64,000 nucleotides of DNA. It comes from Raja brachyura (Eukaryota). Shown here one piece after another: positions 1,129 through 64,000 of this stretch. Both the position numbers and the translations under genes were made by a program. The notes beneath the pieces were generated by a model. It made no database searches, was not told the DNA's origin, and saw nothing but the letters and a program-made list of their open reading frames with translations. The stretch covers positions 44,640,001-44,704,000 of the forward strand of contig OY740798.1 in NCBI GenBank assembly GCA_963514005.1, given 5' to 3'. Positions within the stretch are counted from its first letter, which is position 1. Each line of letters begins with the position of its first letter.

Positions 1129-1227
1129 CTGCAGAAGCTGGACAAGTTGGTCTCCTGGATGTATTACACATTGTGTCTGGACGCATTTACCACAGCATTC
1201 ACCATTCACCTCTAGGTATTCAAATCC
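1129..1227 (-). CDS. Mucin exon ([33 protein letters not shown]); the remaining C-terminal exons lie beyond position 1
   Basis: aacag acceptor, gtttg donor; 99 nt, phase 0-0. Confidence 0.9.
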
Positions 1228-19200: not shown

Positions 19201-22200
19201 TCATTATACTGAAAAGAGGAGAAAGCATTTTAGAGATTTCTGGAATTACGTTAGTACCGATTACTGGTTAATATCCCACTATTGTTGATTTTCCCTGTTT
19301 CAGCGACCCTGACTCCATAATGTGCTTTCTTTATTAGATAGTTGCTGCAGCTTTTAATCCTATCCTTATACTCTGGACTACGGAGATTGACGGGCAACCT
19401 GAGAGAAAAATATAAAATTATGAGGCGAAGATAGGATAGACAATAAGAACCTTTTCCCTAGGATGGAAATGTCGAAGACAAGAAGGAATAGCTTTAAGGC
19501 CAGAAAGGGAAAGACAGTCTAAGTGTCTCTGACTACATTTTATCCCTGTACTGCCCACTCCACCGACATCAGTCTGAAGAAGGGTCTCGACCCGAAATGT
19601 CAACCATTCCTTCTTTCCACACATGTTGCCTGAACTGCTGAGTTACTCCAGCATTTTGTGTGTATCAAAGTTTAAAGGAGATGTGTGGGGCAATGTTTAT
19701 GTAAGTGAATTGCACAAAATGCTGGAGTAACTCAGTGGAACAGGCAGCATATCTGGAGAGTAGGAATAAATGAAGTTTCGGGTCGAGACCCTTATAGCAG
19801 TGGTTGATTTTAACTTCCCCAATATTGACGGATTTCCTTGGTTAAGAGGCATTGATGTTGGGGGTGGATTTTGGGAATTAGGGAACATGTTTACAACATA
19901 GTCATGGATTCCGTGAGCCATACAGCACGGAAACAGGCCCTTCTGCTTATTTTGTCTATGCTGACCAAGTTGGCATTCTGGGCTTGTCCCATTTACTAAC
20001 ATTTAGCCTGTCTATATCCCTCTAAATGCTTCCTGTCCATATATCTGCCAAATGTCTTTTAAAAGTCATAATTGTATCCAATTCCATGACTCCCTCTGGA
20101 AGCTAATTCTAGACAACCCACTACGTGAAAAAATTCCCTGAGGTCCCCTTAATTTTACAATTCTCTACCTTGGGAGATAGACTGAGAGTTCACTTTATCC
20201 GTGTTCCTCATGGTCTTGGACACTTCAATAGGGTCACCCATTAGCCTTCAATGCTCCAAATAAAATGGCAGCCTATCTAATGTCTCCCTATTTATTATCA
20301 TGTGTACCCAGGTACAGTGAAATGCTTTTTTTGCATCCAACTTAACAAGACTATCACCATGGTTGATTAGACTATTGGCGGATGGAATTCAATCCCGACA
20401 GGAATGAGCATTTTAGAAGTATATAAGATTATGAGGGGTGCAGATATTGTAGAAAGTCAAAATATTTTTCCCATGGTAGGGTATCCAAAACAAGAGTGCA
20501 TAGTTTTAAGATGAATGGAATGAGTTTCAAAGGAGAGTTAAGGTTGTTTCACAACCTTAAGTTAAAATCAACCACTGCTATAAGGGTCTCGACCCGAAAC
20601 TTCATTTAGGGGTGACATCTGGAACACGTTGCCAGAGGAGATTGTGGAATTACATGCAATTACTACATTGAGGCATTTAGATAGACATTTAAACAGGCAA
20701 GACATAGAATGATATAGTCCTAATGTAGCAAATTGAATTAGTGTAGATGCACAAAAAACTTGGTTTGGACGTAATGGGGCCCCTATGTAGCACTGTTTCA
20801 GTGCTGTACTATTCTGATTCTAGAAAATAAAAAATGGATCAAATGCTCTGAAACATGGGAATCCTCCAGAATACAAATTACTTCACATTGCTAAGGTTGT
20901 TCTTTGAGGCAATGAACAGAAAAGGATTGCGCCTGCCCTGACAATATCCCCAATTCGACTGTTTGAGCATCATGGGCCATCAATGAGCTAATTCTGAATT
21001 GTCAACAACTGCACCATAAATGCAGTATATCCAGAGATGAAACTTCTTCAGCTGCACCACCAAAGTCTTTAGAAAGTTGACAATGGCTTTTCCCAAACGT
21101 GTGAATCATGATGTAATGCCTACTTACCTCCCTTGGTGGTTTAAGATCAGGGCATCCTGGAACTATGGTGATAGATTCAGTTGACAATGTTGGACGGCTG
21201 GTACTGCTTGTAGGTACACTTGTTAACGGTGGCATTGTGCTTCCACAGGGCCAGATATGTTTTTCGATTTCACAGGTCTCATTACACTTTGCAAAGATAC
21301 AATATCCAGCTTTATCAGTGTAGTTGTATATAATTGCATCTAAAAATGTAAGCAGAAGATGGTTTACTGTTGAATTGGGATACATATTGAAGCTTTGAGA
21401 GGTAACAAACTCAAATATATAAAATGTGCTGATTTTTAGTTAATGCTTTCATTGGTAGAGTGAAATAATGATATAAATGTTGGGATTAAATTGAAACAAG
21501 AGTAAAGTTGCCATAAATTTAGAAAATAAATAAAAACATAAGTTTATTTCAAATGGGTGTCGATTAAAAAAAAACATTTTTGACAGGACACCAAATAACA
21601 AATGTGGTATAAGCCTTGTAATGGCCAGAGAATTTGAGTGGTAATGATGGCTTGGAAAATCATTAAAATCCTACGTGAACCTTGCATTTTACAGTGAGGA
21701 TCGTTTGGGGACATCTACAGTTCTGGCAGTTTATTGACTTCTGCAAATTACACTGGAGGAATGCCACGGAACATGCAATATAACTACAGTGGTTATAAGA
21801 GCAGGTCAGATTCATGTTCCCCCTATCCACCTCCACCTCCAGTGTCCCATCTGTGCCAACGCACAGCCAAACATCATGCTGCACACTAATGCCTCCCCAG
21901 CAACCAGTCCCATGAATGTGAGCAACATGTGGGTGTAATTCAGACAGACAGGGACAGACTTCAAAAATAAATTAGAGTTAGCAATTTCAGCATAACTGAT
22001 GTGTAGGAACGAACTGGAGATGCTGGTTTAAACCAAACGTCACCCATTCCTTCTCCCCAGAGACACCGCCAAGGAACTGCAGATGCTGGTTTAAACCAAA
22101 GTTAGACGCAAAAATTGGAGTAACTCAGGAGAAAAGGAATAGATGATGTTTTTTTTGGGTTGAGACCCTTCTTCAGTCTCAACCCGAAACGTCACCTATT

Positions 22201-25200
22201 CTTTTTCTCCAGAGATGCTGTCTGACCCGCTGAGTTACTTCAGCATTTTGTGTCTATCTTCAGCATAACAGATCCCAGCCTCCCAAGCCAGAGTCTGAAT
22301 CACTAGCACATGACATATCTTAATCAAACTGATAGATAGTCCGATCTCTCTAGCAAAGTCCCATCAGGTTGTCTAAATCCATGTGAAATTGGAGAATGGT
22401 ATTGAAGATCAAAGTGGCATTATGCACTGAGGGGGAGAATAGACAATGGACAATCAGTGCAGGAGTAGGCCATTCGGCGACGAGCCAGCACCGTCATTCA
22501 ATGTGATCATGGCTGATCATCCACAATCAGTACCCCGTTCCTGCCTTCTCCCCATATCCCCTGACTCCGCTATCTTTAAGAGCCCTAGCTAGCTCTCTCT
22601 TTAAAGTATCCAGAGAACCGGCCTCCACCGCCCTCTGAGGCAGAGAATTCCCCAGACTCACAACTCTCTGTGTGAAGAATCTAAGGTGATGAGAAGAATG
22701 AACAAAAGATGAGCAATTGCCTTGCTGTCCCCAAACTGAATCCCTAACCTTACTGCACAAGTCACGAGTGCAGTTCAAGTCAACACAAATTAAGCTGTCG
22801 TATGCACATATACGGTGAGCTGCAGGTACAATGAAAACCTTGCTGCCAGTAGTATCACATGCACATAGACAGACAGATACACAAGGATAAAAATTATACA
22901 TATATTACATGTAGAATTCTGCAAGTTTAACAACACTCAAGAAACTCAACATCACCCAGGTCTTGGATTGACTTTTTTTTTCCAATTCCCTTTCTTTTAG
23001 TCTACATGTCTCTCAGTTTCCACTTCCCTCCTTTCAATTCTTGAATCAACGTTAGGATTATTTAACTTTCTTTGTTTATCTTGTCTTTCTTCTGTTACAT
23101 GTTAACCTTCTATTCAATGCTGTTGGAGTCACTAAAACTAAATAATGATTGGAAAACGTACGATACCACTGCAATGTGTAACCACTTTTGACATCATTTA
23201 TAAACCTCAGCTTCTTACCTTGCTTCTCCTTGTGCAATGCATCCATAATATTTCGTTTTTATAACTTCAGGATTAAATGCTTGTTAGACCATTCCCATTT
23301 CACATTTTTCTCAAACATGTATTTAAAATATTCATATTGCATCTATTTGCATTAAGAACTATCTGCGACGTGCATAAACAAATTGGCAAATCTGGCTTCT
23401 TCGTAAAGCATGTGGAACCATGTATGATGGAAACATTTCAAAAATGGCATCACAAGTAGATGGAATGACAAAGAAGACAAAGAGTATGCTTGCTTTCGGG
23501 GCTTTGAGGATAAGAGTTTGTCAGAAAAATTTGATAAGGCCACATTTGGAGTATTGTGTGCAGTTCTAATCGCCTCAATACAGGAAGGATGTGGAAGCGT
23601 AGAAGAGGATGCAGACGAGGTTTACCAGGATGCAGCCTGGATAAGAGTATGAGCTTTAAAGACAAATTGGCCAAATGTGGATTATTCCTCTGGAGGGTTG
23701 AAGGTTGTGGGGAGACATGAGAGAAGTACATCAAATTGTGAGAGGCATGGGTAGGTTTGACAGTCAGGATCTTATCACCAGAATGGAAATGTCAAAGTCT
23801 AGAATATATTGTTTTAAGGTCAGAAAGGGGAAAGTGTAAAGGAGATGTGCAAGACGAGTTTTTTTTACACGGTGGTGTGTTCCTGGATTGCACTGCTGGG
23901 AGTGGTGGTGGAAGCAGATGTGTTAGTGGTGATTCTGAGCATTTAAAATAGGCAGATGGATATGCAAGGAATAGAGGGACATGGATCGCAAAAGTAGAGG
24001 TGATAAGTTTAACTTGGAATCATTGTCAGCAGAGACAGTGTGGGTCAAAGGGCTGGTCCCTGTGCAGGTCCGTTCTACGTTCCAAATGCTTTCTCTAGCA
24101 AACAGCAAAGCAAGCACCAGTAGCTTACCTTGGGAATACACCGTTCCATTCACAATGCAGACACATTCTGTGACGGGAGAAGAAGAACTTGTGGTTGCAG
24201 AAAGCGTAGAGTGCTCAATGGAACCAGTGGGTCGGGAAGAAAACGTTGAGGGCATCCTGGTCGTAGATGCAGACAAAGAAGTTGATGATCCGCCAGTGGT
24301 GAGTCGAACAGTGACGGCAGTGGTGGTAGTCCATGCGGCGGTTGATGAAGAAGAATGGTTTACAGTGATTCTGCTGGGGGTTGGAGTCACTGAGGTTGAT
24401 TCTGTGCTACCACTGTGAGTGCTAGGCACCACCAGAGGTGTGCTATATGTAGACGCAGTGATGGTAGTGCTGTTCGTTGTAGTTGACAGGGGACTCGTGG
24501 CAGTTGTGGCAGAGAGTGTTGTGGGTTCTTCTGATGTTGTGGTTGTGGACGTTGTTCCTGTTCCAGGAGTTGTGCTTGTGGGCACCAATGGGGTCTGGGT
24601 AGTTGTTGTGGACTTGGTGGTCGTGGGTAGTTCAGTAGTTTCTGTTAGTTCAGTTGTACAAGTTGTGGTCAATTCTGTTGTAGTACTTGCTGGTGTGCCA
24701 GAAACTGGAGATGTAGAGGTCATGTGCTCTGTAGTAAGTGTAGTGGGACGAGTTGTACTGGTTGTGCTTTCAATGGTACGAGTGGTTGTTGATGTTGTCT
24801 CTCTGACTGGAGATGTGGGGCTCGTGTGTTGCTGTGTTGGTGTTGTGGGACTTCCTGTTTTGCTTGTAGCAATGCTAGAATATGGTGTTTTTGTTTCGGT
24901 GCTTGTGCCAGTTGATGGGCTGTGTGTCTGTATTGTCGTGGGTTCAGTTGATTTTGATGTAGTCGTGGTGGATGCTGTTTGTGTTTGAGGTGTTTTGGTT
25001 GTGATAACCTCTGTAGTTTCTGTAGTTCCTTTTGACGTGGTGGTAAATGGTGTTTCAGTAGATTCCGTTTTTTCAGTTGTGGAAGTTGTGGTCAGTTCAG
25101 GTGTGGAACCTTGTGGTGTTCCTGACACTGAAGGTGTTGTGGTTGTGTGCTCTGTTGTAGGAGAAGTGGAACCAGTTGTTTTGCTTGTGGTTGTGGTTGT

Positions 25201-28200
25201 ATGAGGGGTTGTGGACGTTGTTCCTGTTTCAGGAGTTGTGGGGCTCGAGTGTAACTGAGTTGGTGTTGTGGGACTTCCGGTTGCGGTTGTAAAAGTGGTT
25301 GAATGTGGGGTTTTTGTTTCTGTTGTTGGGACGGTTGTTGGGGTGTGAGTGTGCAGTGTTGTGGTTTCCGATGGTGTTGATGTTGTGGTTGCGGACGTTA
25401 TTCCTGTTCCAGGAGTTGTGCTTGTGGGCACCAATGGGGTCTGGGTACTTGTTGTGGACTTGGTGGTTGTGGGTAGTTCAGTAGTTTCTGTTAGTTCAGT
25501 TGTACAAGTTGTGGTCAATTCTGGTGTAGTACTTGCTGGTGTGCCAGAGACTGGAGATGTAGAGGTCATGTGCTCTGTTGTAAGTGTAGTGGGACGAGTT
25601 GTACTGGTTGTGCTTTCAATGGTACGAGTGGTTGTTGATGTTGTCTCCCTGACTGGAGATGTGGGGCTCGTGCGTTGCTGTGTTGGTGTTGTGGGACTTC
25701 CTGTTTTGCTTGTAGCAATGCTAGAATATGGTGTTTTTGTTTCGGTGCTTGTGCCAGTTGATGGGCTGTGTGTCTGTACTGTCGTGGGTTCAGTTGATTT
25801 TGATGTAGTCGTGCTGGATGCTGTTTGTGTTTGAGGTGTTTTGGTTGTGATAACCTCTGTAGTTTCTGTAGTTCCTTTTGACATGGTGGTAAATGGTGTT
25901 TCAGTAGATTCCGTTTTTTCAGTTGTGGAAGTTGTGGTCAGTTCAGGTGTGGAACCTTGTGGTGTTCCTGACACTGAAGGTGTTGTGGTTGTGTGCTCTG
26001 TTGTAGGAGAAGTGGAACCAGTTGCTTTGCTTGTGGTTGTGGTTGTATGAGGGGTTGTGGACGTTGTTCCTGTTTCAGGAGTTGTGGAGCTCGAGTGTAA
26101 CTGAGTTGGTGTTGTGGGACTTCCGGTTGCGGTTGTAAAAGTGGTTGAATGTGGGGTTTTTGTTTCTGTTGTTGGGACGGTTGTTGGGGTGTGAGTGTGC
26201 AGTGTTGTGGTTTCCGATGGTGTTGATGTTGTGGTTGCGGACGTTATTCCTGTTCCAGGAGTTGTGCTTGTGGGCACCAATGGGGTCTGGGTACTTGTTG
26301 TGGACTTGGTGGTTGTGGGTAGTTCAGTAGTTTCTGTTAGTTCAGTTGTACAAGTTGTGGTCAATTCTGGTGTAGTACTTGCTGGTGTGCCAGAGACTGG
26401 AGATGTAGAGGTCATGTGCTCTGTTGTAAGTGTAGTGGGACGAGTTGTACTGGTTGTGCTTTCAATGGTACGAGTGGTTGTTGATGTTGTCTCCCTGACT
26501 GGAGATGTGGGGCTCGTGCGTTGCTGTGTTGGTGTTGTGGGACTTCCTGTTTTGCTTGTAGCAATGCTAGAATATGGTGTTTTTGTTTCGGTGCTTGTGC
26601 CAGTTGATGGGCTGTGTGTCTGTATTGTCGTGGGTTCAGTTGATTTTGATGTAGTCGTGGTGGATGCTGTTTGTGTTTGAGGTGTTTTGGTTGTGATAAC
26701 CTCTGTAGTTTCTGTAGTTCCTTTTGACGCGGTGGTAAATGGTGTTTCAGTAGATTCCGTTTTTTCAGTTGTGGAAGTTGTGGTCAGTTCAGGTGTGGAA
26801 CCTTGTGGTGTTCCTGACACTGAAGGTGTTGTGGTTGTGTGCTCTGTTGTAGGAGAAGTGGAACCAGTTGTTTTGCTTGTGGTTGTGGTTGTATGAGGGG
26901 TTGTGGACGTTGTTCCTGTTGCAGGAGTTGTGGAGCTTGAGTGTAACTGAGTTGGTGTTGTGGGACTTCCGGTTGCGGTTGTGAAAGTGGTTGAATGTGG
27001 GGTTTTTGTTTCTGTTGTTGGGACGGTTGTTGGGGTGTGAGTGTGCAGTGTTGTGGTTTCCGATGGTGTTGATGTTGTGGTTGCGGACGTTATTCCTGTT
27101 CCAGGAGTTGTGGTTGTGGGCACCAATGGGGTCTGGGTAGTTGTTGTGGACTTGGTGGTTGTGGGTAGTTCAGTAGTTTCTGTTAGTTCAGTTGTACAAG
27201 TTGTGGTCAATTCTGGTGTAGTACTTGCTGGTGTGCCAGAGACTGGAGATGTAGAGGTCATGTGCTCTGTTGTAAGTGTAGTGGGACGAGTTGTACTGGT
27301 TGTGCTTTTAATGGTACGAGTGGTTGTTGATGTTGTCTCCCTGACTGAAGATGTGGGGCTCGTGCGTTGCTGTGTTGGTGTTGTGGGACTTCCTGTTTTG
27401 CTTGTAGCAATGCTAGAATATGGTGTTTTTGTTTCGGTGCTTGTGCCAGTTGATGGGCTGTGTGTCTGTATTGTCGTGGGTTCAGTTGATTTTGATGTAG
27501 TCGTGGTGGATGCTGTTTGTGTTTGAGGTGTTTTGGTTGTGATAACCTCTGTAGTTTCTGTAGTTCCTTTTGACGTGGTGGGAAAGGGTGTTTCAGTAGA
27601 TTCCGTTTTTTCAGTTGTGGAAGTTGTGGTCAGTTCAGGTGTGGAACTTTGTGGTGTTCCTGACACTGAAGGTGTTGTGGTTGTGTGCTCTGTTGTAGGA
27701 GAAGTGGAACCAGTTGTTTTGCTTGTGGTTGTGGTTGTATGAGGGGTTGTGGACGTTCCTGTTTCAGGAGTTGTGGAGCTCGAGTGTAACTGAGTTGGTG
27801 TTGTGGGACTTCCGGTTGCGGTTGTAAAAGTGGTTGAATGTGGGGTTTTTGTTTCTGTTGTTGGGACGGTTGTTGGGGTGTGAGTGTGCAGTGTTGTGGT
27901 TTCCGATGGTGTTGATGTTGTGGTTGCGGACGTTATTCCTGTTCCAGGAGTTGTGGTTGTGGGCACCAATGGGGTCTGGGTAGTTGTTGAGGACTTGGTG
28001 GTTGTGGGTAGTTCAGTAGTTTCTGTTAGTTCAGTTGTACAAGTTGTGGTCAATTCTGGTGTAGTACTTGCTGGTGTGCCAGAGACTGGAGATGTAGAGG
28101 TCATGTGCTCTGTTGTAAGTGTAGTGGGACGAGTTGTACTGGTTGTGCTTTCAATGGTACGAGTGGTTGTTGATGTTGTCTCCCTGACTGGAGATGTGGG

Positions 28201-31200
28201 GCTCGTGCGTTGCTGTGTTGGTGTTGTGGGACTTCCTGTTTTGCTTGTAGCAATGCTAGAATATGGTGTTTTTGTTTCGGTGCTTGTGCCAGTTGATGGG
28301 CTGTGTGTCTGTATTGTCGTGGGTTCAGTTGATTTTGATGTAGTCGTGGTGGATGCTGTTTGTGTTTGAGGTGTTTTGGTTGTGATAACCTCTGTAGTTT
28401 CTGTAGTTCCTTTTGACGCGGTGGTAAATGGTGTTTCAGTAGATTCCGTTTTTTCAGTTGTGGAAGTTGTGGTCAGTTCAGGTGTGGAACCTTGTGGTGT
28501 TCCTGACACTGAAGGTGTTGTGGTTGTGTGCTCTGTTGTAGGAGAAGTGGAACCAGTTGTTTTGCTTGTGGTTGTGGTGGTATGAGGGGTTGTGGACGTT
28601 CCTGTTTCAGGAGTTGTGGAGCTCGAGTGTAACTGAGTTGGTGTTGTGGGACTTCCGGTTGCGGTTGTAAAAGTGGTTGAATGTGGGGTTTTTGTTTCTG
28701 TTGTTGGGACGGTTGTTGGGGTGCGAGTGTGCAGTGTTGTGGTTTCCGATGGTGTTGATGTTGTGGTTGCGGACGTTATTCCTGTTCCAGGAGTTGTGCT
28801 TGTGGGCACCAATGGGGTCTGGGTACTTGTTGTGGACTTGGTGGTTGTGGGTAGTTCAGTCGTTTCTGTTAGTTCAGTTGTACAAGTTGTGGTTATTTCT
28901 GATGTAGTACTTGCTGGTGTGCCAGAGACTGGAGATGTAGAGGTCATGTGCTCTGTTGTAAGTGTAGTGGGACGAGTTGTACTGGTTGTGCTTTCAATGG
29001 TACGAGTGGTTGTTGATGTTGTCTCCCTGACTGGAGATGTGGGGCTCGTGTGTTGCTGTGTTGGTGTTGTGGGACTTCCGGTTGCGGTTGTAAAAGTGGT
29101 TGAATGTGGGGTTTTTGTTTCTGTTGTTGGGACGGTTGTTGGGGTGTGAGTGTGCAGTGTTGTGGTTTCCGATGGTGTTGATGTTGTGGTTGCGGACGTT
29201 ATTCCTGTTCCAGGAGTTGTGGTTGTGGGCACCAATGGGGTCTGGGTAGTTGTTGTGGACTTGGTGGTTGTGGGTAGTTCAGTAGTTTCTGTTAGTTCAG
29301 TTGTACAAGTTGTGGTCAATTCTGGTGTAGTACTTGCTGGTGTGCCAGAGACTGGAGATGTAGAGGTCATGTGCTCTGTTGTAAGTGTAGTGGGACGAGT
29401 TGTACTGGTTGTGCTTTCAATGGTACGAGTGGTTGTTGATGTTGTCTCCCTGACTGGAGATGTGGGGCTCGTGCGTTGCTGTGTTGGTGTTGTGGGACTT
29501 CCTGTTTTGCTTGTAGCAATGCTAGAATATGGTGTTTTTGTTTCGGTGCTTGTGCCAGTTGATGGGCTGTGTGTCTGTATTGTCGTGGGTTCAGTTGATT
29601 TTGATGTAGTCGTGGTGGATGCTGTTTGTGTTTGAGGTGTTTTGGTTGTGATAACCTCTGTAGTTTCTGTAGTTCCTTTTGACGCGGTGGTAAATGGTGT
29701 TTCAGTAGATTCCGTTTTTTCAGTTGTGGAAGTTGTGGTCAGTTCAGGTGTGGAACCTTGTGGTGTTCCTGACACTGAAGGTGTTGTGGTTGTGTGCTCT
29801 GTTGTAGGAGAAGTGGAACCAGTTGTTTTGCTTGTGGTTGTGGTTGTATGAGGGGTTGTGGACGTTCCTGTTTCAGGAGTTGTGGAGCTCGAGTGTAACT
29901 GAGTTGGTGTTGTGGGACTTCCGGTTGCGGTTGTAAAAGTGGTTGAATGTGGGGTTTTTGTTTCTGTTGTTGGGACGGTTGTTGGGGTGCGAGTGTGCAG
30001 TGTTGTGGTTTCCGATGGTGTTGATGTTGTGGTTGCGGACGTTATTCCTGTTCCAGGAGTTGTGCTTGTGGGCACCAATGGGGTCTGGGTACTTGTTGTG
30101 GACTTGGTGGTTGTGGGTAGTTCAGTCGTTTCTGTTAGTTCAGTTGTACAAGTTGTGGTTATTTCTGATGTAGTACTTGCTGGTGTGCCAGAGACTGGAG
30201 ATGTAGAGGTCATGTGCTCTGTTGTAAGTGTAGTGGGACGAGTTGTACTGGTTGTGCTTTCAATGGTACGAGTGGTTGTTGATGTTGTCTCCCTGACTGG
30301 AGATGTGGGGCTCGTGTGTTGCTGTGTTGGTGTTGTGGGACTTCCGGTTGCGGTTGTAAAAGTGGTTGAATGTGGGGTTTTTGTTTCTGTTGTTGGGACG
30401 GTTGTTGGGGTGTGAGTGTGCAGTGTTGTGGTTTCCGATGGTGTTGATGTTGTGGTTGCGGACGTTATTCCTGTTCCAGGAGTTGTGGTTGTGGGCACCA
30501 ATGGGGTCTGGGTAGTTGTTGTGGACTTGGTGGTTGTGGGTAGTTCAGTAGTTTCTGTTAGTTCAGTTGTACAAGTTGTGGTCATTTCTGGTGTAGTACT
30601 TGCTGGTGTGCCAGAGACTGGAGATGTAGAGGCCATGTGCTCTGTTGTAAGTGTAGTGGGACGAGTTGTACTGGTTGTGCTTTCAATGGTACGAGTGGTT
30701 GTTGATGTTGTCTCCCTGACTGGAGATGTGGGGCTCGTGCGTTGCTGTGTTGGTGTTGTGGGACTTCCTGTTTTGCTTGTAGCAATGCTAGAATATGGTG
30801 TTTTTGTTTCGGTGCTTGTGCCAGTTGATGGGCTGTGTGTCTGTATTGTCGTGGGTTCAGTTGATTTTGATGTAGTCGTGGTGGATGCTGTTTGTGTTTG
30901 AGGTGTTTTGGTTGTGATAACCTCTGTAGTTTCTGTAGTTCCTTTTGACGCGGTGGTAAATGGTGTTTCAGTAGATTCCGTTTTTTCAGTTGTGGAAGTT
31001 GTGGTCAGTTCAGGTGTGGAACCTTGTGGTGTTCCTGACACTGAAGGTGTTGTGGTTGTGTGCTCTGTTGTAGGAGAAGTGGAACCAGTTGTTTTGCTTG
31101 TGGTTGTGGTTGTATGAGGGGTTGTGGACGTTCCTGTTTCAGGAGTTGTGGAGCTCGAGTGTAACTGAGTTGGTGTTGTGGGACTTCCGGTTGCGGTTGT

Positions 31201-34200
31201 GAAAGTGGTTGAATGTGGGGTTTTTGTTTCTGTTGTTGGGACGGTTGTTGGGGTGTGAGTGTGCAGTGTTGTGGTTTCCGATGGTGTTGATGTTGTGGTT
31301 GCGGACGTTATTCCTGTTCCAGGAGTTGTGGTTGTGGGCACCAATGGGGTCTGGGTAGTTGTTGTGGACTTGGTGGTTGTGGGTAGTTCAGTAGTTTCTG
31401 TTAGTTCAGTTGTACAAGTTGTGGTCATTTCTGGTGTAGTACTTGCTGGTGTGCCAGAGACTGGAGATGTAGAGGTCATGTGCTCTGTTGTAAGTGTAGT
31501 GGGACGAGTTGTACTGGTTGTGCTTTCAATGGTACGAGTGGTTGTTGATGTTGTCTCCCTGACTGGAGATGTGGGGCTCGTGCGTTGCTGTGTTGGTGTT
31601 GTGGGACTTCCTGTTTTGCTTGTAGCAATGCTAGAATATGGTGTTTTTGTTTCGGTGCTTGTGCCAGTTGATGGGCTGTGTGTCTGTATTGTCGTGGGTT
31701 CAGTTGATTTTGATGTAGTCGTGGTGGATGCTGTTTGTGTTTGAGGTGTTTTGGTTGTGATAACCTCTGTAGTTTCTGTAGTTCCTTTTGACGCGGTGGT
31801 AAATGGTGTTTCAGTAGATTCCGTTTTTTCAGTTGTGGAAGTTGTGGTCAGTTCAGGTGTGGAACCTTGTGGTGTTCCTGACACTGAAGGTGTTGTGGTT
31901 GTGTGCTCTGTTGTAGGAGAAGTGGAAACAGTTGTTTTGCTTGTGGTTGTGGTTGTATGAGGGGTTGTGGACGTTCCTGTTTCAGGAGTTTTGGAGCTCG
32001 AGTGTAACTGAGTTGGTGTTGTGGGACTTCCGGTTGCGGTTGTAAAAGTGGTTGAATGTGGGGTTTTTGTTTCTGTTGTTGGGACGGTTGTTGGGGTGTG
32101 AGTGTGCAGTGTTGTGGTTTCCGATGGTGTTGATGTTGTGGTTGCGGACGTTATTCCTGTTCCAGGAGTTGTGCTTGTGGGCACCAATGGGGTCTGGGTA
32201 CTTGTTGTGGACTTGGTGGTTGTGGGTAGTTCAGTCGTTTCTGTTAGTTCAGTTGTACAAGTTGTGGTTATTTCTGATGTAGTACTTGCTGGTGTGCCAG
32301 AGACTGGAGATGTAGAGGTCATGTGCTCTGTTGTAAGTGTAGTGGGATGAGTTGTACTGGTTGTGCTTTCAATGGTACGAGTGGTTGTTGATGTTGTCTC
32401 CCTGACTGGAGATGTGGGGCTCGTGCGTTGCTGTGTTGGTGTTGTGGGACTTCCTGTTTTGCTTGTAGCAATGCTAGAATATGGTGTTTTTGTTTCGGTG
32501 CTTGTGCCAGTTGATGGGCTGTGTGTCTGTATTGTCGTGGGTTCAGTTGATTTTGATGTAGTCGTGGTGGATGCTGTTTGTGTTTGAGGTGTTTTGGTTG
32601 TGATAACCTCTGTAGTTTCTGTAGTTCCTTTTGACGCGGTGGTAAATGGTGTTTCAGTAGATTCCGTTTTTTCAGTTGTGGAAGTTGTGGTCAGTTCAGG
32701 TGTGGAACCTTGTGGTGTTCCTGACACTGAAGGTGTTGTGGTTGTGTGCTCTGTTGTAGGAGAAGTGGAACCAGTTGTTTTGCTTGTGGTTGTGGTTGTA
32801 TGAGGGGTTGTGGACGTTCCTGTTTCAGGAGTTGTGGAGCTCGAGTGTAACTGAGTTGGTGTTGTGGGACTTCCGGTTGCGGTTGTAAAAGTGGTTGAAT
32901 GTGGGGTTTTTGTTTCTGTTGTTGGGACGGTTGTTGGGGTGCGAGTGTGCAGTGTTGTGGTTTCCGATGGTGTTGATGTTGTGGTTGCGGACGTTATTCC
33001 TGTTCCAGGAGTTGTGCTTGTGGGCACCAATGGGGTCTGGGTACTTGTTGTGGACTTGGTGGTTGTGGGTAGTTCAGTCGTTTCTGTTAGTTCAGTTGTA
33101 CAAGTTGTGGTTATTTCTGATGTAGTACTTGCTGGTGTGCCAGAGACTGGAGATGTAGAGGTCATGTGCTCTGTTGTAAGTGTAGTGGGACGAGTTGTAC
33201 TGGTTGTGCTTTCAATGGTACGAGTGGTTGTTGATGTTGTCTCCCTGACTGGAGATGTGGGGCTCGTGTGTTGCTGTGTTGGTGTTGTGGGACTTCCGGT
33301 TGCGGTTGTAAAAGTGGTTGAATGTGGGGTTTTTGTTTCTGTTGTTGGGACGGTTGTTGGGGTGTGAGTGTGCAGTGTTGTGGTTTCCGATGGTGTTGAT
33401 GTTGTGGTTGCGGACGTTATTCCTGTTCCAGGAGTTGTGGTTGTGGGCACCAATGGGGTCTGGGTAGTTGTTGTGGACTTGGTGGTTGTGGGTAGTTCAG
33501 TAGTTTCTGTTAGTTCAGTTGTACAAGTTGTGGTCAATTCTGGTGTAGTACTTGCTGGTGTGCCAGAGACTGGAGATGTAGAGGTCATGTGCTCTGTTGT
33601 AAGTGTAGTGGGACGAGTTGTACTGGTTGTGCTTTCAATGGTACGAGTGGTTGTTGATGTTGTCTCCCTGACTGGAGATGTGGGGCTCGTGCGTTGCTGT
33701 GTTGGTGTTGTGGGACTTCCTGTTTTGCTTGTAGCAATGCTAGAATATGGTGTTTTTGTTTCGGTGCTTGTGCCAGTTGATGGGCTGTGTGTCTGTATTG
33801 TCGTGGGTTCAGTTGATTTTGATGTAGTCGTGGTGGATGCTGTTTGTGTTTGAGGTGTTTTGGTTGTGATAACCTCTGTAGTTTCTGTAGTTCCTTTTGA
33901 CGCGGTGGTAAATGGTGTTTCAGTAGATTCCGTTTTTTCAGTTGTGGAAGTTGTGGTCAGTTCAGGTGTGGAACCTTGTGGTGTTCCTGACACTGAAGGT
34001 GTTGTGGTTGTGTGCTCTGTTGTAGGAGAAGTGGAACCAGTTGTTTTGCTTGTGGTTGTGGTTGTATGAGGGGTTGTGGACGTTCCTGTTTCAGGAGTTG
34101 TGGAGCTCGAGTGTAACTGAGTTGGTGTTGTGGGACTTCCGGTTGCGGTTGTAAAAGTGGTTGAATGTGGGGTTTTTGTTTCTGTTGTTGGGACGGTTGT

Positions 34201-37200
34201 TGGGGTACGAGTGTGCAGTGTTGTGGTTTCCGATGGTGTTGATGTTGTGGTTGCGGACGTTATTCCTGTTCCAGGAGTTGTGCTTGTGGGCACCAATGGG
34301 GTCTGGGTACTTGTTGTGGACTTGGTGGTTGTGGGTAGTTCAGTCGTTTCTGTTAGTTCAGTTGTACAAGTTGTGGTTATTTCTGATGTAGTGCTTGCTG
34401 GTGTGCCAGAGACTGGAGATGTAGAGGTCATGTGCTCTGTTGTAAGTGTAGTGGGACGAGTTGTACTGGTTGTGCTTTCAATGGTACGAGTGGTTGTTGA
34501 TGTTGTCTCCCTGACTGGAGATGTGGGGCTCGTGTGTTGCTGTGTTGGTGTTGTGGGACTTCCGGTTGCGGTTGTAAAAGTGGTTGAATGTGGGGTTTTT
34601 GTTTCTGTTGTTGGGACGGTTGTTGGGGTGTGAGTGTGCAGTGTTGTGGTTTCCGATGGTGTTGATGTTGTGGTTGCGGACGTTATTCCTGTTCCAGGAG
34701 TTGTGGTTGTGGGCACCAATGGGGTCTGGGTAGTTGTTGTGGACTTGGTGGTTGTGTGTAGTTCAGTAGTTTCTGTTAGTTCAGTTGTACAAGTTGTGGT
34801 CATTTCTGGTGTAGTACTTGCTGGTGTGCCAGAGACTGGAGATGTAGAGGCCATGTGCTCTGTTGTAAGTGTAGTGGGACGAGTTGTACTGGTTGTGCTT
34901 TCAATGGTACGAGTGGTTGTTGATGTTGTCTCCCTGACTGGAGATGTGGGGCTCGTGCGTTGCTGTGTTGGTGTTGTGGGACTTCCTGTTTTGCTTGTAG
35001 CAATGCTAGAATATGGTGTTTTTGTTTCGGTGCTTGTGCCAGTTGATGGGCTGTGTGTCTGTATTGTCGTGGGTTCAGTTGATTTTGATGTAGTCGTGGT
35101 GGATGCTGTTTGTGTTTGAGGTGTTTTGGTTGTGATAACCTCTGTAGTTTCTGTAGTTCCTTTTGACGCGGTGGTAAATGGTGTTTCAGTAGATTCCGTT
35201 TTTTCAGTTGTGGAAGTTGTGGTCAGTTCAGGTGTGGAACCTTGTGGTGTTCCTGACACTGAAGGTGTTGTGGTTGTGTGCTCTGTTGTAGGAGAAGTGG
35301 AACCAGTTGTTTTGCTTGTGGTTGTGGTTGTATGAGGGGTTGTGGACGTTGTTCCTGTTTCAGGAGTTGTGGAGCTCGAGTGTAACTGAGTTGGTGTTGT
35401 GGGACTTCCGGTTGCGGTTGTGAAAGTGGTTGAATGTGGGGTTTTTGTTTCTGTTGTTGGGACGGTTGTTGGGGTGTGAGTGTGCAGTGTTGTGGTTTCC
35501 GATGGTGTTGATGTTGTGGTTGCGGACGTTATTCCTGTTCCAGGAGTTGTGGTTGTGGGCACCAATGGGGTCTGGGTACTTGTTGTGGACTTGGTGGTTG
35601 TGGGTAGTTCAGTAGTTTCTGTTAGTTCAGTTGTACAAGTTGTGGTCATTTCTGGTGTAGTACTTGCTGGTGTGCCAGAGACTGGAGATGTAGAGGTCAT
35701 GTGCTCTGTTGTAAGTGTAGTGGGATGAGTTGTACTGGTTGTGCTTTCAATGGTACGAGTGGTTGTTGATGTTGTCTCCCTGACTGGAGATGTGGGGCTC
35801 GTGCGTTGCTGTGTTGGTGTTGTGGGACTTCCTGTTTTGCTTGTAGCAATGCTAGAATATGGTGTTTTTGTTTCGGTGCTTGTGCCAGTTGATGGGCTGT
35901 GTGTCTGTATTGTCGTGGGTTCAGTTGATTTTGATGTAGTCGTGGTGGATGCTGTTTGTGTTTGAGGTGTTTTGGTTGTGATAACCTCTGTAGTTTCTGT
36001 AGTTCCTTTTGACGCGGTGGTAAATGGTGTTTCAGTAGATTCCGTTTTTTCAGTTGTGGAAGTTGTGGTCAGTTCAGGTGTGGAACCTTGTGGTGTTCCT
36101 GACACTGAAGGTGTTGTGGTTGTGTGCTCTGTTGTAGGAGAAGTGGAAACAGTTGTTTTGCTTGTGGTTGTGGTTGTATGAGGGGTTGTGGACGTTCCTG
36201 TTTCAGGAGTTTTGGAGCTCGAGTGTAACTGAGTTGGTGTTGTGGGACTTCCGGTTGCGGTTGTAAAAGTGGTTGAATGTGGGGTTTTTGTTTCTGTTGT
36301 TGGGACGGTTGTTGGGGTGTGAGTGTGCAGTGTTGTGGTTTCCGATGGTGTTGATGTTGTGGTTGCGGACGTTATTCCTGTTCCAGGAGTTGTGCTTGTG
36401 GGCACCAATGGGGTCTGGGTACTTGTTGTGGACTTGGTGGTTGTGGGTAGTTCAGTCGTTTCTGTTAGTTCAGTTGTACAAGTTGTGGTTATTTCTGATG
36501 TAGTACTTGCTGGTGTGCCAGAGACTGGAGATGTAGAGGTCATGTGCTCTGTTGTAAGTGTAGTGGGATGAGTTGTACTGGTTGTGCTTTCAATGGTACG
36601 AGTGGTTGTTGATGTTGTCTCCCTGACTGGAGATGTGGGGCTCGTGCGTTGCTGTGTTGGTGTTGTGGGACTTCCTGTTTTGCTTGTAGCAATGCTAGAA
36701 TATGGTGTTTTTGTTTCGGTGCTTGTGCCAGTTGATGGGCTGTGTGTCTGTATTGTCGTGGGTTCAGTTGATTTTGATGTAGTCGTGGTGGATGCTGTTT
36801 GTGTTTGAGGTGTTTTGGTTGTGATAACCTCTGTAGTTTCTGTAGTTCCTTTTGACGCGGTGGTAAATGGTGTTTCAGTAGATTCCGTTTTTTCAGTTGT
36901 GGAAGTTGTGGTCAGTTCAGGTGTGGAACCTTGTGGTGTTCCTGACACTGAAGGTGTTGTGGTTGTGTGCTCTGTTGTAGGAGAAGTGGAACCAGTTGTT
37001 TTGCTTGTGGTTGTGGTTGTATGAGGGGTTGTGGACGTTGTTCCTGTTTCAGGAGTTGTGGAGCTCGAGTGTAACTGAGTTGGTGTTGTGGGACTTCCGG
37101 TTGCGGTTGTAAAAGTGGTTGAATGTGGGGTTTTTGTTTCTGTTGTTGGGACGGTTGTTGGGGTGTGAGTGTGCAGTGTTGTGGTTTCCGATGGTGTTGA

Positions 37201-40200
37201 TGTTGTGGTTGCGGACGTTATTCCTGTTCCAGGAGTTGTGCTTGTGGGCACCAATGGGGTCTGGGTACTTGTTGTGGACTTGGTGGTTGTGGGTAGTTCA
37301 GTCGTTTCTGTTAGTTCAGTTGTACAAGTTGTGGTTATTTCTGATGTAGTGCTTGCTGGTGTGCCAGAGACTGGAGATGTAGAGGTCATGTGCTCTGTTG
37401 TAAGTGTAGTGGGACGAGTTGTACTGGTTGTGCTTTCAATGGTACGAGTGGTTGTTGATGTTGTCTCCCTGACTGGAGATGTGGGGCTCGTGTGTTGCTG
37501 TGTTGGTGTTGTGGGACTTCCGGTTGCGGTTGTAAAAGTGGTTGAATGTGGGGTTTTTGTTTCTGTTGTTGGGACGGTTGTTGGGGTGTGAGTGTGCAGT
37601 GTTGTGGTTTCCGATGGTGTTGATGTTGTGGTTGCGGACGTTATTCCTGTTCCAGGAGTTGTGGTTGTGGGCACCAATGGGGTCTGGGTAGTTGTTGTGG
37701 ACTTGGTGGTTGTGTGTAGTTCAGTAGTTTCTGTTAGTTCAGTTGTACAAGTTGTGGTCATTTCTGGTGTAGTACTTGCTGGTGTGCCAGAGACTGGAGA
37801 TGTAGAGGCCATGTGCTCTGTTGTAAGTGTAGTGGGACGAGTTGTACTGGTTGTGCTTTCAATGGTACGAGTGGTTGTTGATGTTGTCTCCCTGACTGGA
37901 GATGTGGGGCTCGTGCGTTGCTGTGTTGGTGTTGTGGGACTTCCTGTTTTGCTTGTAGCAATGCTAGAATATGGTGTTTTTGTTTCGGTGCTTGTGCCAG
38001 TTGATGGGCTGTGTGTCTGTATTGTCGTGGGTTCAGTTGATTTTGATGTAGTCGTGGTGGATGCTGTTTGTGTTTGAGGTGTTTTGGTTGTGATAACCTC
38101 TGTAGTTTCTGTAGTTCCTTTTGACGCGGTGGTAAATGGTGTTTCAGTAGATTCCGTTTTTTCAGTTGTGGAAGTTGTGGTCAGTTCAGGTGTGGAACCT
38201 TGTGGTGTTCCTGACACTGAAGGTGTTGTGGTTGTGTGCTCTGTTGTAGGAGAAGTGGAACCAGTTGTTTTGCTTGTGGTTGTGGTTGTATGAGGGGTTG
38301 TGGACGTTGTTCCTGTTTCAGGAGTTGTGGAGCTCGAGTGTAACTGAGTTGGTGTTGTGGGACTTCCGGTTGCGGTTGTGAAAGTGGTTGAATGTGGGGT
38401 TTTTGTTTCTGTTGTTGGGACGGTTGTTGGGGTGTGAGTGTGCAGTGTTGTGGTTTCCGATGGTGTTGATGTTGTGGTTGCGGACGTTATTCCTGTTCCA
38501 GGAGTTGTGGTTGTGGGCACCAATGGGGTCTGGGTAGTTGTTGTGGACTTGGTGGTTGTGGGTAGTTCAGTAGTTTCTGTTAGTTCAGTTGTACAAGTTG
38601 TGGTCATTTCTGGTGTAGTACTTGCTGGTGTGCCAGAGACTGGAGATGTAGAGGTCATGTGCTCTGTTGTAAGTGTAGTGGGACGAGTTGTACTGGTTGT
38701 GCTTTCAATGGTACGAGTGGTTGTTGATGTTGTCTCCCTGACTGGAGATGTGGGGCTCGTGCGTTGCTGTGTTGGTGTTGTGGGACTTCCTGTTTTGCTT
38801 GTAGCAATGCTAGAATATGGTGTTTTTGTTTCGGTGCTTGTGCCAGTTGATGGGCTGTGTGTCTGTATTGTCGTGGGTTCAGTTGATTTTGATGTAGTCG
38901 TGGTGGATGCTGTTTGTGTTTGAGGTGTTTTGGTTGTGATAACCTCTGTAGTTTCTGTAGTTCCTTTTGACGCGGTGGTAAATGGTGTTTCAGTAGATTC
39001 CGTTTTTTCAGTTGTGGAAGTTGTGGTCAGTTCAGGTGTGGAACCTTGTGGTGTTCCTGACACTGAAGGTGTTGTGGTTGTGTGCTCTGTTGTAGGAGAA
39101 GTGGAAACAGTTGTTTTGCTTGTGGTTGTGGTTGTATGAGGGGTTGTGGACGTTCCTGTTTCAGGAGTTTTGGAGCTCGAGTGTAACTGAGTTGGTGTTG
39201 TGGGACTTCCGGTTGCGGTTGTAAAAGTGGTTGAATGTGGGGTTTTTGTTTCTGTTGTTGGGACGGTTGTTGGGGTGTGAGTGTGCAGTGTTGTGGTTTC
39301 CGATGGTGTTGATGTTGTGGTTGCGGACGTTATTCCTGTTCCAGGAGTTGTGCTTGTGGGCACCAATGGGGTCTGGGTACTTGTTGTGGACTTGGTGGTT
39401 GTGGGTAGTTCAGTAGTTTCTGTTAGTTCAGTTGTACAAGTTGTGGTCATTTCTGATGTAGTACTTGCTGGTGTGCCAGAGACTGGAGATGTAGAGGTCA
39501 TGTGCTCTGTTGTAAGTGTAGTGGGACGAGTTGTACTGGTTGTGCTTTCAATGGTACGAGTGGTTGTTGATGTTGTCTCCCTGACTGGAGATGTGGAGCT
39601 CGAGTGTAACTGAGTTGGTGTTGTGGGACTTCCGGTTGCGGTTGTAAAAGTGGTTGAATGTGGGGTTTTTGTTTCTGTTGTTGGGACGGTTGTTGGGGTG
39701 TGAGTGTGCAGTGTTGTGGTTTCCGATCGTGTTGATGTTGTGGTTGCGGACGTTATTCCTGTTCCAGGAGTTGTGCTTGTGGGCACCAATGGGGTCTGGG
39801 TAGTTGTTGTGGACTTGGTGGTTGTGGGTAGTTCAGTAGTTTCTGTTAGTTCAGTTGTACAAGTTGTGGTCAATTCTGGTGTAGTACTTGCTGGTGTGCC
39901 AGAGACTGGAGATGTTGATGTTGAATATGTTGTTCTGGATGTTATGGGGCTGGTTGTTGTGGGTATGGGGCTGGGCAAGGATGATGGGCCTATGGTTGTT
40001 GTGGTTGGCTCTGGTGTTGTTGTTGGAGGTTGGCAAATGTAGTCACAGCACTGTACCTGTATTTCATAGTCAAAGCACTGTTTGAATAGATATTGATCCT
40101 TGTTTCTGCATGTTAGCCCAAAGGAAACATTGCACTGCACTGTCTGTGCGAGGTCTTCGAGATCGACGTCTGGTGCATGCGTTGCTCTGCACTCAATCCT

Positions 40201-43200
40201 GCTTGGAGCATCACAGGGCAGGTGTCCTTGGTCTTTGATTTTATCATACGTTTCAATATCACCTCCGCCGTAACCATGTGTCGGTTTGCTTACACTTATC
40301 CATTTGCTCCAATCGCATTGTTCCACGATCACACAAGTTGCTGTGGAGTTATGAAAAGATACATTCATTTAATTAAGCCAATTTACGTTACTTATCAGAA
40401 TAGATGCATCATGTTTACAAATATATTATAGTAATCTCTGCTTGAGAATAATCAGTAATGTAATCTTGGGTTACTGCTATGACATTCTGCGTAATCAATA
40501 AATTAAAACCGCCTCCTCTTTTACCCCCAACTCTATTTCTCCTGTAGCACCTGGACCCTGAACATTAAGCTTCCAATCCTGTCCCTCTCTTAGCCAGGTT
40601 TGCATGATGGCTACAATGTCCCAGTCACACGTATCTATCCATGCTCTGAATTCATCACCTTTAGGGCCTGTCCCACTTGGACGACCTAATCCACGAGTTT
40701 AGAAGACCCTAGACGAGTTGAAAAAAATGTCACGGTCGTGTTGACTCACCGAATTAAAAGACCTCCTACGACCATGTCTACGACCCCCCCCCTCGACCTC
40801 AGTCTTCCACACCTAAGACCAACTACGACTAGCTAAGTGTGGAAAATGATCACATGATAAAATAATGTATATTTGCATTTTTTTTCTCAGGCCAGTTACC
40901 GATCTAGGACTACCTACAACTACCATCACGACCTACTACGACCTACCTACGAGTAAAAAGTGTTAATTTTTTCCACACCAACCTTGTTTTTACTCGTGGA
41001 CATTTTTTAATCAGGCTGGAACATACTCCGCGACCTACTTGAGGCCACGAGTACGCGGAGACCACTCACGAGCATGAGGAAGAGTGATGAAAACCTCCTT
41101 CGACCTCGTGGCGACCATGCTGCGAGTATGAGTCAAGGGCAAACTTCGCACAGGTCGCCAATTTGGTCATGAAAGTGGTACAGGGGCTTTACCAATCAAG
41201 CCTCTAGCATAAAAATGAATACAATTCAATCTAACAGTCCTTCCTCCCTCCCTCCCTCCCACCCTGCTGTGCTCCTGCCTATTCTGTGCACTGAACTTTT
41301 TTTCCCATCATCTTCATTATCAACTACCAACCTCTCAACTGTCACAGTCCTGCATTTGATCATGGCCTCCTGCCAATCTAGTTTAAACCGACCCATGTAG
41401 CACTCGCAAACCTGCCTACCAGGACATTGGTAGCCCTTGAGTTCAGGTGCAACCCATTTCTCGTGTACACATCACCTCTGCCCCAGAAGAGATTCCCAAG
41501 GTCCAAAAGTCTCTGCCCCCTTCATCAAATTCCCATTCTCGCATTAATTGGGACTTTCTTCCTATTCCTACCCTCACTATCAGCTGGCACATGGAGCAAT
41601 CTGGACATCACTGATGAAATATATTGTTTCGACACACTGAAGTTCACATAGGAGTCCAAGCCGTGGAGGTGTCGCAGCCACCAGCACTGGTAGGACTAAG
41701 GTCAGGTGTTGCCCACAGGAACTCTGTGCCCACATTCCTTGCGAGTAATAAGGATTTAGTGAATTCTCTTCTGATGGGTTTCATTTAATTCCCTTTGCCA
41801 GTCAATAAGCTGAAATCTTGCAAACCTGACAGATTGAGAAAATCAGTGCATGGTTCCTTCACATTCCCGACATTTCAATTTACTTACAGGTCAACGGTTT
41901 GCTGGTTGTGGAGAAAGATGGCGTTGATGTCAAAATCACTGCAGAAAATAAATTAATAGACGGATTTAAAAAATGTGCAGGTCATTTCAGAATAGTGTAA
42001 ATGAATTATGTAAACATCTGTGAATTGGTGCTTAAATGTATCACCCTGTTACATTTTGGCCTTGGGTTAGTCTGCACACTGGTACAAATGGCTAACGAGG
42101 TATTCTGGTTGCCATTGTCCTTGCTGAACTTACCATAAGACCATTAGACATAGAAGCAGATTTTGGCCATTCAGCCCATTGAGTCTACTCCACCAATCAA
42201 TCATGGCTGATTTGTTCATCATCTCAACCCCATTCTCCTGCCTTCTCCCCATAACTCTTGATATAAATCACAAATCTATCAATATCTGTTTTAGAAATAC
42301 CCAATAACTTTGCCAGGGCCTTCTGTGGTAAATTATTCCACAGATCCATCACCCTCGGTCTGAAAAAAATCCTACTCATCTCTATTCTGAAGGTACGTCA
42401 TTTAATTCTTAGGCTGTGCCATTTAAGTCTCGACCCTCTCATTACTGGAATCACCCTTTCCGACTCAACTCTATCTGGGCCTTTCATTATCTGGTAGATT
42501 TCAATGAAATTTCCCCTCATTCTTCCAAACGCCAGCGAGTACAAGCCCAGAGCCTTCAAACGCTCCTAATACATTAACCCCGTCATCCCCGGGAACTTTC
42601 CTGTAAAACTCCTCTGGACTCTCTCCAAAGCCAGCACACTCTTCCTCAGATATGGAGCCCAGAATTGCTCACAATATTCCAAATGTGGCCTCACCAGCAC
42701 CAGATAAAGCCTGAGCATTACATCCTTGCTTATATATTCTAGTCCCCTTGAAATGAATGCTGGCATTGCATTTGCCTTCTTTACAACCGACTCAACCTGC
42801 AGTAATCCTTTTGGGAATCTTATACCAGCACTCTCAAGTCTCTTGGCAGCTGTGATTTCCGAATCCTCTCCCCATTTAGAAAGTAGTCGCACTGCGTTCC
42901 GGTGCCAGGAACCCAGGTTTGATCCTGACTACGGGTGTTGTCTGTACAGAGTTAGTAAGATCTCCCTGCGACCGCATGGGTTTTCTCTTGGTGCTCTGGT
43001 CTCCACCCGCATTTCAAAGACATGCACGTTTGTAGGTTAATCGGCTGTAAATTGTTCCCTAGCAAGCTACTAACAACTAGAATAGAAATCTGCCAACAAA
43101 ATTAAAACATAAAGTACCAAAAATAATTAAGTGCAATCAATGACTGAAAACATTAATTCACACAATGCAAATTCCCTGAAGCCTACATCTCCCATGCAGT

Positions 43201-59033: not shown

Positions 59034-59087
<54 letters not shown>

Positions 59088-63813: not shown

Positions 63814-64000
63814 CTTGGAGAAGTAAAATGATAATGTCAACTCCACTGGCCTTTTATGTTGACCTTACAAAAGATGGTAAATGTAGAATAGAAGTACGGA
63901 GAATATGAGGCTCATCAAAAATGAACAGGAAAGTCACATGGGCCCCATTGTAGCATTGGAAATTTATTTGGAAACAGGAAATACTTTGTTTGAAAGCAAA

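Follow-up and report, generated by a model that had tools for sequence, protein, structure and literature searches.

A Muc2-type gel-forming mucin gene in a ray

We analysed a 64,000-nucleotide stretch of DNA from the ray Raja brachyura (the window), which holds part of a Muc2-type mucin gene (Table 1). The gene runs past the window at both ends, its 5' part extending to about G000:C18:44,727,300 and its 3' end lying at about G000:C18:44,636,400. The last 120 residues of a shark orthologue match exons just outside the window, which may encode a C-terminal cystine knot. The central exon contains a CysD domain, the PTS array and the first residues of the next Cys-rich module, and lies in a stop-free minus-strand open reading frame (23926-40368, 5481 codons). 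Its borders, an acceptor (...ccacag/CAACT at 40340) and a donor (...CCAAG/gtaagc at 24129), were read from the sequence rather than from RNA.

Gel-forming mucins are defined by three N-terminal VWD-C8-TIL assemblies, a central PTS region and a fourth VWD-C8 (PMC4948705). The ray gene fits this definition for the MUC2/MUC5 type, including the presence of CysD in the central exon. The ray CysD begins T-A-T-C and carries a WxxW motif and 10 Cys, an even number that likely leaves no spare thiol. A search of the genome gave a single CysD match within this gene, in line with the first-pass annotation.

The neighbouring genes place the ray gene in the Muc2 position. Upstream, on the opposite (plus) strand, are three distant mucin genes that are probably Muc6-like, a label given from position and distance and not from a named match, while downstream is a same-strand gene that falls in the Muc5 clade (SH-aLRT 98). 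Among named proteins, Mobula birostris mucin-2 is the closest (76% identity over 641 columns). In a quick rooted tree of 25 rows, the ray clade did not fall within the Muc5 clade (98) and formed a polytomy together with tetrapod Muc2.

Table 1. Positions of the mucin features in the window.
Feature	Position	Strand	Details
Central exon, Muc2-type gel-forming mucin	24129..40340	-	16,212 bp, 5404 codons, symmetric phase
CysD domain, sole one found in the gene	40030..40335	-	Pfam PF13330, E 1.5e-26
Exons: end of D2, D', D3, module before CysD	44050..63814	-	tblastn of P0003 and P0277; Pfam VWD, C8, TIL
Exons: post-PTS module, D4-C8, VWC domains	1132..21439	-	tblastn; Pfam
PTS tandem array	24532..39915	-	period 423 bp, 37 units of about 141 aa (22 A, 15 B); TRF
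22 lone Cys codons, all TGT	24658..39861	-	each within [10 protein letters not shown]
Cys codons 1-11, first bases	39861, 39438, 38595, 37749, 37326, 36480, 35637, 34791, 34368, 33525, 33102	-	
Cys codons 12-22, first bases	32259, 31416, 30573, 30150, 29307, 28884, 28041, 27198, 26352, 25506, 24660	-	
Example B-unit Ser (TCC) at aligned site	39016..39018	-	acidic patch retained, S-T-T-E-K-T-E

The array carries one cysteine in every A unit

The array, a disordered segment of low complexity, is rich in Thr (44%), with 14% Ser, 10% Pro and 7% Glu, and its units follow the order AABABAABABABAABAABABABAABAABABABABABA. Between CysD and the end of the exon there are 22 Cys, one per A unit, and the aligned site in the B units is Ser (TCC in 15/15). 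The regular lone Cys reported in the first-pass annotation, with Ser in B, is thus confirmed. Of the motif variants it named, PEL (7), PEM (6), SEI (7) and SEM (1) are present but PE-I is absent, and TEL also occurs once. The 21 Cys-Cys intervals are 141 aa (6), 281 aa (9) or 282 aa (6), and Cys density along the array is 4.3 per 1000 aa. Unit types separate even when the Cys/Ser codon is left out: over 306 sites, 21 A units differ from an A reference at 0-9 positions and from a B reference at 82-91. The final unit, A37, resembles A for only about 56 codons from its start. The exact pattern T-T-C-T-T-E-x-T-E had 22 matches genome-wide, all in this array (reversed control, 0). Elsewhere among the mucins of the genome, 4 PTS-rich frames contained no lone Cys; these frames come from parts of five regions and probably miss multi-exon PTS.

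Constancy of the cysteine is as expected from homogenisation

The first-pass annotation noted that the Cys is kept while neighbouring codons vary, which implies that it is more constant than they are. Our data do not confirm this implication. The A copies are about 98% identical (mean pairwise difference 1.6-2.5%; 0.4% for the B copies), and 48/56 residues and 43/56 codons are invariant across all 22. The Cys belongs to a stretch of 10 consecutive codons that do not vary even at silent positions, and the surrounding 27 nt are identical in 22/22 copies, again including silent sites. By chance alone, the Cys codon would show no amino-acid change with a probability of 0.72-0.80. The constancy of Cys within the array is therefore what homogenisation gives, and we rejected it as an argument for selection. 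Comparison of A with B gave a near-neutral dN/dS of 0.71. A B-type tail is present at every A-A junction, the pattern that a deletion running across a shared segment would produce.

The same acid-flanked motif occurs in tetrapod Muc2

We defined an acid-flanked motif as C-x-[T/P]-E with a further E at +4 to +7 and no other Cys within 15 aa; the ray Cys site fits this definition. The motif was found at all 22 lone PTS Cys of tetrapod Muc2-type proteins (12/30 records), and at 0/28 lone PTS Cys of Muc5-type proteins (168 records). Carriers make up 9/18 named tetrapod species for Muc2-type proteins. The motif is missing in the other nine (four birds, hare, Xenopus laevis, Rana, Lithobates and Rhinoderma) and in 2 further records. 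Frog, salamander and lizard Muc2 have 1-3 copies each. When the acidic frame was sought in 19 tetrapod Muc2 proteins, it occurred 14 times, with Cys at that position every time.

Of 140 positions in the A unit, only 2 agree with the short motif, one of which is the Cys. Scored against a profile of the tetrapod flanks that omits the Cys column, the ray site ranked 1/140 in 4/6 settings and scored +4.6, compared to below zero for all 15 non-Muc2 lone Cys. With a wider window it ranked 5 and 16 of 140, so no extended homology is seen; the shared motif spans about 7 residues in low-complexity sequence. The presence of the same motif in amphibian and lizard Muc2 would favour a function, and the ray and tetrapod motifs may share common descent. 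No description of the motif or of a ray Muc2 array was found in literature searches, including the supplement text of PMC4948705; subscription papers may describe them.

The amphibian and lizard proteins (P0039, P0040, P0041, P0043, P0051, P0066/P0363, P0075, P0081 and P0121) have, like the ray, lone PTS Cys in the context T-x-x-C-x-[T/P]-E..E, often 18-60 aa from a CysD. They differ in scale, having 1-3 copies and 5-11 CysD, compared to 22 copies and one CysD in the ray.

Lone PTS cysteines are rare, and compensation for CysD is not supported

Lone periodic Cys are rare in vertebrate PTS regions. By a strict definition, 0/165 mucins with at least 500 PTS residues had at least 5 lone Cys. Under a looser definition applied to further proteins, a Muc5-type protein of hawfinch had 11 lone PTS Cys and one of mackerel had 6. 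In these two (P0306 and P0352, respectively) a lone Cys recurs once per PTS repeat, as in the ray, and has been amplified 11x and 5x; unlike the ray protein, they belong to the Muc5 clade (in a tree without an outgroup) and have the flanks C-E-P-E and C-P-T-P.

The first-pass annotation had also proposed that the thiols compensate for having one CysD. We saw no inverse relation in tetrapod Muc2, where CysD number 5-11 in proteins that carry the lone Cys and 3-10 in those that do not, in a sample biased toward many CysD; compensation is not supported. Its broader proposal of functional lone thiols survives in part: the cysteines are real, periodic and rare in vertebrate PTS regions, but neither their constancy nor the compensation argument supports it.

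That PTS Cys cross-link in place of CysD is itself a prior published idea. In the accessible part of PMC2515642, Cys-bearing PTS repeats of Xenopus and of three Drosophila mucins are proposed to replace CysD in cross-linking, with a CysD-like role in organising chain interactions, the role proposed for the ray array as well. In the ray a single Cys recurs every 141-282 aa, the array has a long period and two unit types, and the Cys has a defined acidic flank that is also present in tetrapod Muc2; that part of the paper gives no motif for Xenopus or Drosophila. Human MUC2 shares with the ray gene its layout (D1-D2-D'-D3, CysD, long PTS, D4-C8-VWC) and locus position, but has two CysD and cross-links via its termini and CysD. 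We compared it by description only, and the accessible portions of these sources do not mention PTS Cys (PMC7599080, PMC11207715, PMC3195396).

Origin and possible role of the 22 cysteines

What gives rise to the 22 Cys? Our preferred reading, at a probability of roughly 0.5, is that they are copies of one founding Cys at an old Muc2 motif that would leave an exposed, unpaired thiol. The founding site was likely this motif, Cys followed by x-T-E-x-x-E, and unequal crossing-over, together with homogenisation among the mucin repeats, likely carried the Cys through the array. The copy number would then likely be a by-product of array growth rather than a new gel architecture under selection. As proposed for TFF1 and Ig light chains, and by analogy with them, the adjoining glutamates may mask the thiol from ER retention, such that the mucin could be secreted with free thiols. 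Such thiols could take up oxidants or metals, with inter-chain disulfides arising only occasionally. The accessible part of PMC7350206 describes Glu-flanked unpaired Cys in TFF1 (CysVII) and Ig light chains, proposes that acid masking allows escape from ER retention, and suggests oxidant scavenging or copper binding as roles. Both are small, folded proteins in which the Cys is terminal and the acids adjoin it directly (PMC7350206), whereas the ray Cys is internal, with acids at +3, +6 and +9 in a chain that is probably O-glycosylated, and the comparison is an analogy only.

A possible but doubtful alternative is that a chance point change made one Cys in an ancestral ray unit, which was tolerated, possibly because of adjacent acids, and hitch-hiked to 22 copies without function; the tetrapod match would then be convergence or chance. 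The lack of excess conservation and the A to B dN/dS are consistent with this, as are the periodic lone Cys in other contexts in hawfinch and mackerel; the 11 C-E-P-E sites of hawfinch further show that acid flanks can arise independently. Further observations count against an old motif. In B units the acids are retained beside a Ser, and these units reached 15 copies without Cys. The tetrapod distribution is patchy, and the ray clade is not joined to tetrapod Muc2 in the rooted tree. Against a chance origin, the Cys occupies one of the few positions that fit the motif and ranks first in most profile settings, its match is to the gene at the same locus position and to none of the Muc5-type lone Cys, and the A and B codons (TGT and TCC) are two bases apart.

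It is unlikely that the thiols were selected for regular lateral disulfide cross-links or for acylation, giving a different gel that offsets the single CysD. The one CysD and the density of Cys along the array would suit such a gel. However, the array carries no sign of selection on Cys, the spacing merely tracks unit length, and tetrapod carriers are not short of CysD. S-acylation is mainly cytosolic, and acylation of a lumenal, O-glycosylated segment is unlikely. In the accessible text of the sources, a cross-linking role of this kind has been suggested for the PTS Cys of Xenopus (as cited in PMC2515642) and the CysD cross-links of human MUC2 are non-covalent (PMC3195396), which both favour lateral cross-linking, but the TFF1 literature links acidic flanks with staying unpaired over dimerising (PMC7350206). 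Finally, it is quite improbable that the lone Cys are what remains of the start of a CysD (T-T-x-C) after partial duplications that happened separately in several lineages, as suggested by the Bombina CysD, which starts P-T-T-T-E-C like one of its lone Cys, by the T-A-T-C start in the ray and by the closeness of many tetrapod sites to a CysD, because the conserved part is the downstream x-T-E-x-x-E, absent from CysD starts, and some tetrapod sites lie 460-1685 aa from the nearest CysD.

A more far-reaching form of the preferred old-motif reading, which we put forward only tentatively, is that the Muc2 PTS has held a functional, acid-flanked free Cys since the jawed-vertebrate ancestor. This Cys would have been lost in birds, the sole sampled mammal and some frogs, and amplified twenty-fold in a group of rays into a redox-active or laterally cross-linkable gel.

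The prevailing view of PTS regions is of an unalignable glycan scaffold in which composition and length alone count. If shared by descent, the short Cys motif that the Muc2 proteins of ray, frog, salamander and lizard have in common would give such a region a sequence-specific site; if it is convergent or neutral, the array is an ordinary homogenised mucin repeat. The natural 22-copy array makes the old idea of chain cross-linking by PTS Cys directly testable, and the 141-aa A unit comes with a natural Ser control in the B unit.

Cartilaginous-fish relatives

No chondrichthyan orthologue with an in-frame PTS was present among the matches listed in protein searches (best 120 of 189 and best 120 of 1266), and the searches likewise gave no in-frame Muc2 PTS from lungfish or coelacanth. 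The Mobula gene model ends after CysD and the Hypanus model omits the exon. The Mustelus (shark) model reads the PTS exon in a shifted frame, where 0/13 candidate contexts fit C-x-x-E, although ACT-GAA makes a stop when shifted in this way, and a model of this kind would leave it out. The contig of a fourth organism starts inside the Cys codon. In contigs of three related organisms, which are 97-99% identical to the ray, the Cys codon is unchanged, as would be expected 95-97% of the time at this identity.

The repeat array and its cysteines

The 22-Cys array is a genuine feature. It lies in a minus-strand open frame of 5481 codons (ORF reading), in which splice-like borders at 40340 and 24129, predicted from sequence alone, mark an exon of 5404 codons. 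This begins with one CysD (Pfam E 1.5e-26; 10 Cys), followed by 22 lone Cys. As proposed in the first-pass annotation, there is one in each A unit (n = 22), regularly spaced, and B units have Ser at the aligned position. The spacing is 141, 281 or 282 aa, every Cys is encoded by TGT, and Ser is TCC in the B units (n = 15). A and B units differ at 87 of 309 bases (dN/dS 0.71) and separate even with the Cys/Ser codon masked. The Cys-site motif has 22 matches in the whole 2.7-Gb genome, every one inside the array.

Features of the array and its surroundings (G000, source genome; C18, contig; L-numbers, loci)
Feature	Location	Strand	Remarks
Tandem array, 423-bp period	window 24532-39915	-	repeat detection
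Intronic frame	window 18020-18463	+	ORF reading
Degenerate CA-rich simple repeat, 3 kb	L015, G000:C18:44,710,660-44,713,641		intron of Muc2-type gene
Downstream Muc5-clade gene	L001-L010, G000:C18:44,503,800-44,596,500
Three Muc6-like genes	L019-L038, G000:C18:44.96-45.66 Mb	+

Array units comprise a head (A or B, ~103 aa) and one of two tails, and the tail type foretells the following head. All six A–A junctions have a B-type tail, being A-head/B-tail chimeras joined within a shared segment; these tails are the footprint of unequal crossing-over.

The Cys had implicitly been taken to be selected, as it is constant while neighbouring codons vary. Of the 56 codons that the 22 A units have in common, 43 never varied, and neither did 48 of the encoded residues (mean pairwise difference 2.5%). 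The Cys codon sits in a stretch of 10 invariant codons, silent positions included, and would remain unchanged with a probability of 0.72 or 0.80, as estimated from synonymous or from non-synonymous variation within the array. Its constancy is not special, and this evidence for selection fails. Given near-identical copies, no excess constancy and B-type tails at the junctions, we infer that Cys number and spacing are products of repeat turnover.

Relatives were compared through sequencing runs of other organisms (4 of 20 listed). The Cys was kept in three, whose contigs span the A-unit Cys codon and differ only elsewhere (2/160, 3/160 and 3/311 bases); retention is expected 95–97% of the time at such closeness. 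In the fourth, the contig starts within the Cys codon. None of the database models of ray and shark Muc2 orthologues (P0277, P0003, P0362) has an in-frame PTS region. P0277 (Mustelus asterias) translates the central exon out of frame, giving ~2200 aa rich in Asn, His and Ile; P0003 (Mobula birostris) is truncated after CysD, and P0362 (Hypanus sabinus) skips the exon altogether.

Lone cysteines in other mucins

Under a strict definition, 0 of 165 fetched mucins with ≥500 PTS residues had at least five lone PTS Cys. A later batch, under a looser definition, gave a hawfinch protein (P0306, residues 1673-2481; 11 lone Cys, one per repeat, roughly every 65–140 aa) and a mackerel protein (P0352; 6 lone Cys, with an array of five copies at residues 1937-2769, one per repeat). 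Both are Muc5-type and independent of the ray array. Periodic lone Cys are thus rare, with more than one origin.

Of 370 fetched proteins, 198 were assigned to a type by comparison with Muc2 and Muc5 references that lack the motif; those with <500 PTS residues or without a D2-D3 region were left out. In tetrapod Muc2-type records (n = 30, isoforms included), 22/22 lone PTS Cys fitted C-x-[T/P]-E with another Glu at +4 to +7, compared to 0/28 in Muc5-type records (n = 168). Carriers were nine of 18 named tetrapod species (seven frogs, a salamander and a lizard; 1–3 copies each); the motif was absent from four birds, hare, X. laevis, Rana, Lithobates, Rhinoderma and two further records. When 19 proteins were searched with an acidic-frame pattern built from carriers, there were 14 matches, and each had Cys at the expected site. 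With a profile of 18 tetrapod flanks, Cys column omitted, the ray Cys site ranked first of 140 A-unit positions in four of six settings (5th and 16th with wide windows), and 15 non-Muc2 lone Cys scored below zero. Because the likeness was noticed before this test was built, the sample is biased to many-CysD proteins and the sequence compared is short, the motif apparently shared by ray and tetrapods is a lead, not proof of common descent. The literature searched, whose coverage did not extend to the 2007 Xenopus paper, did not contain this cross-vertebrate motif, which merits comparative follow-up.

Possible role of the thiol

One source states that unpaired Cys normally lead to ER retention, reports that flanking acids mask those of TFF1 and Ig light chains, and proposes oxidant scavenging and copper binding as roles for acid-masked Cys (PMC7350206). 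The ray Cys stretch is among the most acidic of its repeat: of 281 windows, 10 attain its 3 acids per 11 residues. Such flanks may allow the lone thiol to be tolerated and exposed; it would be mostly free at secretion, with cross-links just now and then. We give this reading a probability of about 0.5. Neutral hitch-hiking of the Cys, together with convergence on the tetrapod motif, is somewhat unlikely, though the nearest competitor. A selected lateral disulfide network, as originally proposed, appears improbable. Cross-linking is also not a new idea, since Cys occur in PTS repeats of three Drosophila mucins and of Xenopus mucins, as in the ray array, and it has been suggested that they structure contacts between chains there as CysD does (PMC2515642). 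Compensation for a single CysD is unsupported, because motif carriers have 5–11 CysD and non-carriers 3–10. That the Cys is a CysD relic is the least probable reading.

Gene identity and locus

Exons for D2-D'-D3, D4-C8 and VWC domains lie on either side of the central exon, in a gene spanning about C18:44,727,300 to 44,636,400. Among named proteins, those closest to its product are Mobula birostris mucin-2 (76% over 641 columns) and one from Mustelus asterias, which marks the source animal as a cartilaginous fish, likely a ray. Upstream, on the other strand, there are three distant mucin genes; the gene downstream groups in the Muc5 clade. This order puts the gene at the Muc2 position. A published account confirms the mucin gene cluster, and only the cluster (PMC9712336). 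In a rooted quick tree (25 rows, one removed for low coverage), the ray/shark clade and tetrapod Muc2 had no resolved order. The intronic frame resembles the last part of a CR1-type LINE reverse transcriptase.

In the Muc5-clade gene the PTS frame is short (663 aa) and lies between two six-Cys-type modules; the genome search gave no CysD match in it, and no additional long PTS frame was found in the 45-kb gap ahead of its D4. No long single-exon PTS frame was found within the 200 kb fetched for the Muc6-like genes. In the CA-rich repeat all three minus-strand frames are open. Contig C19 holds another cluster, of roughly twelve mucin-like genes, at 30.6-34.9 Mb, where one gene has five divergent CysD-like exons, ~1.3–1.9 kb apart, at 30.675-30.682 Mb.
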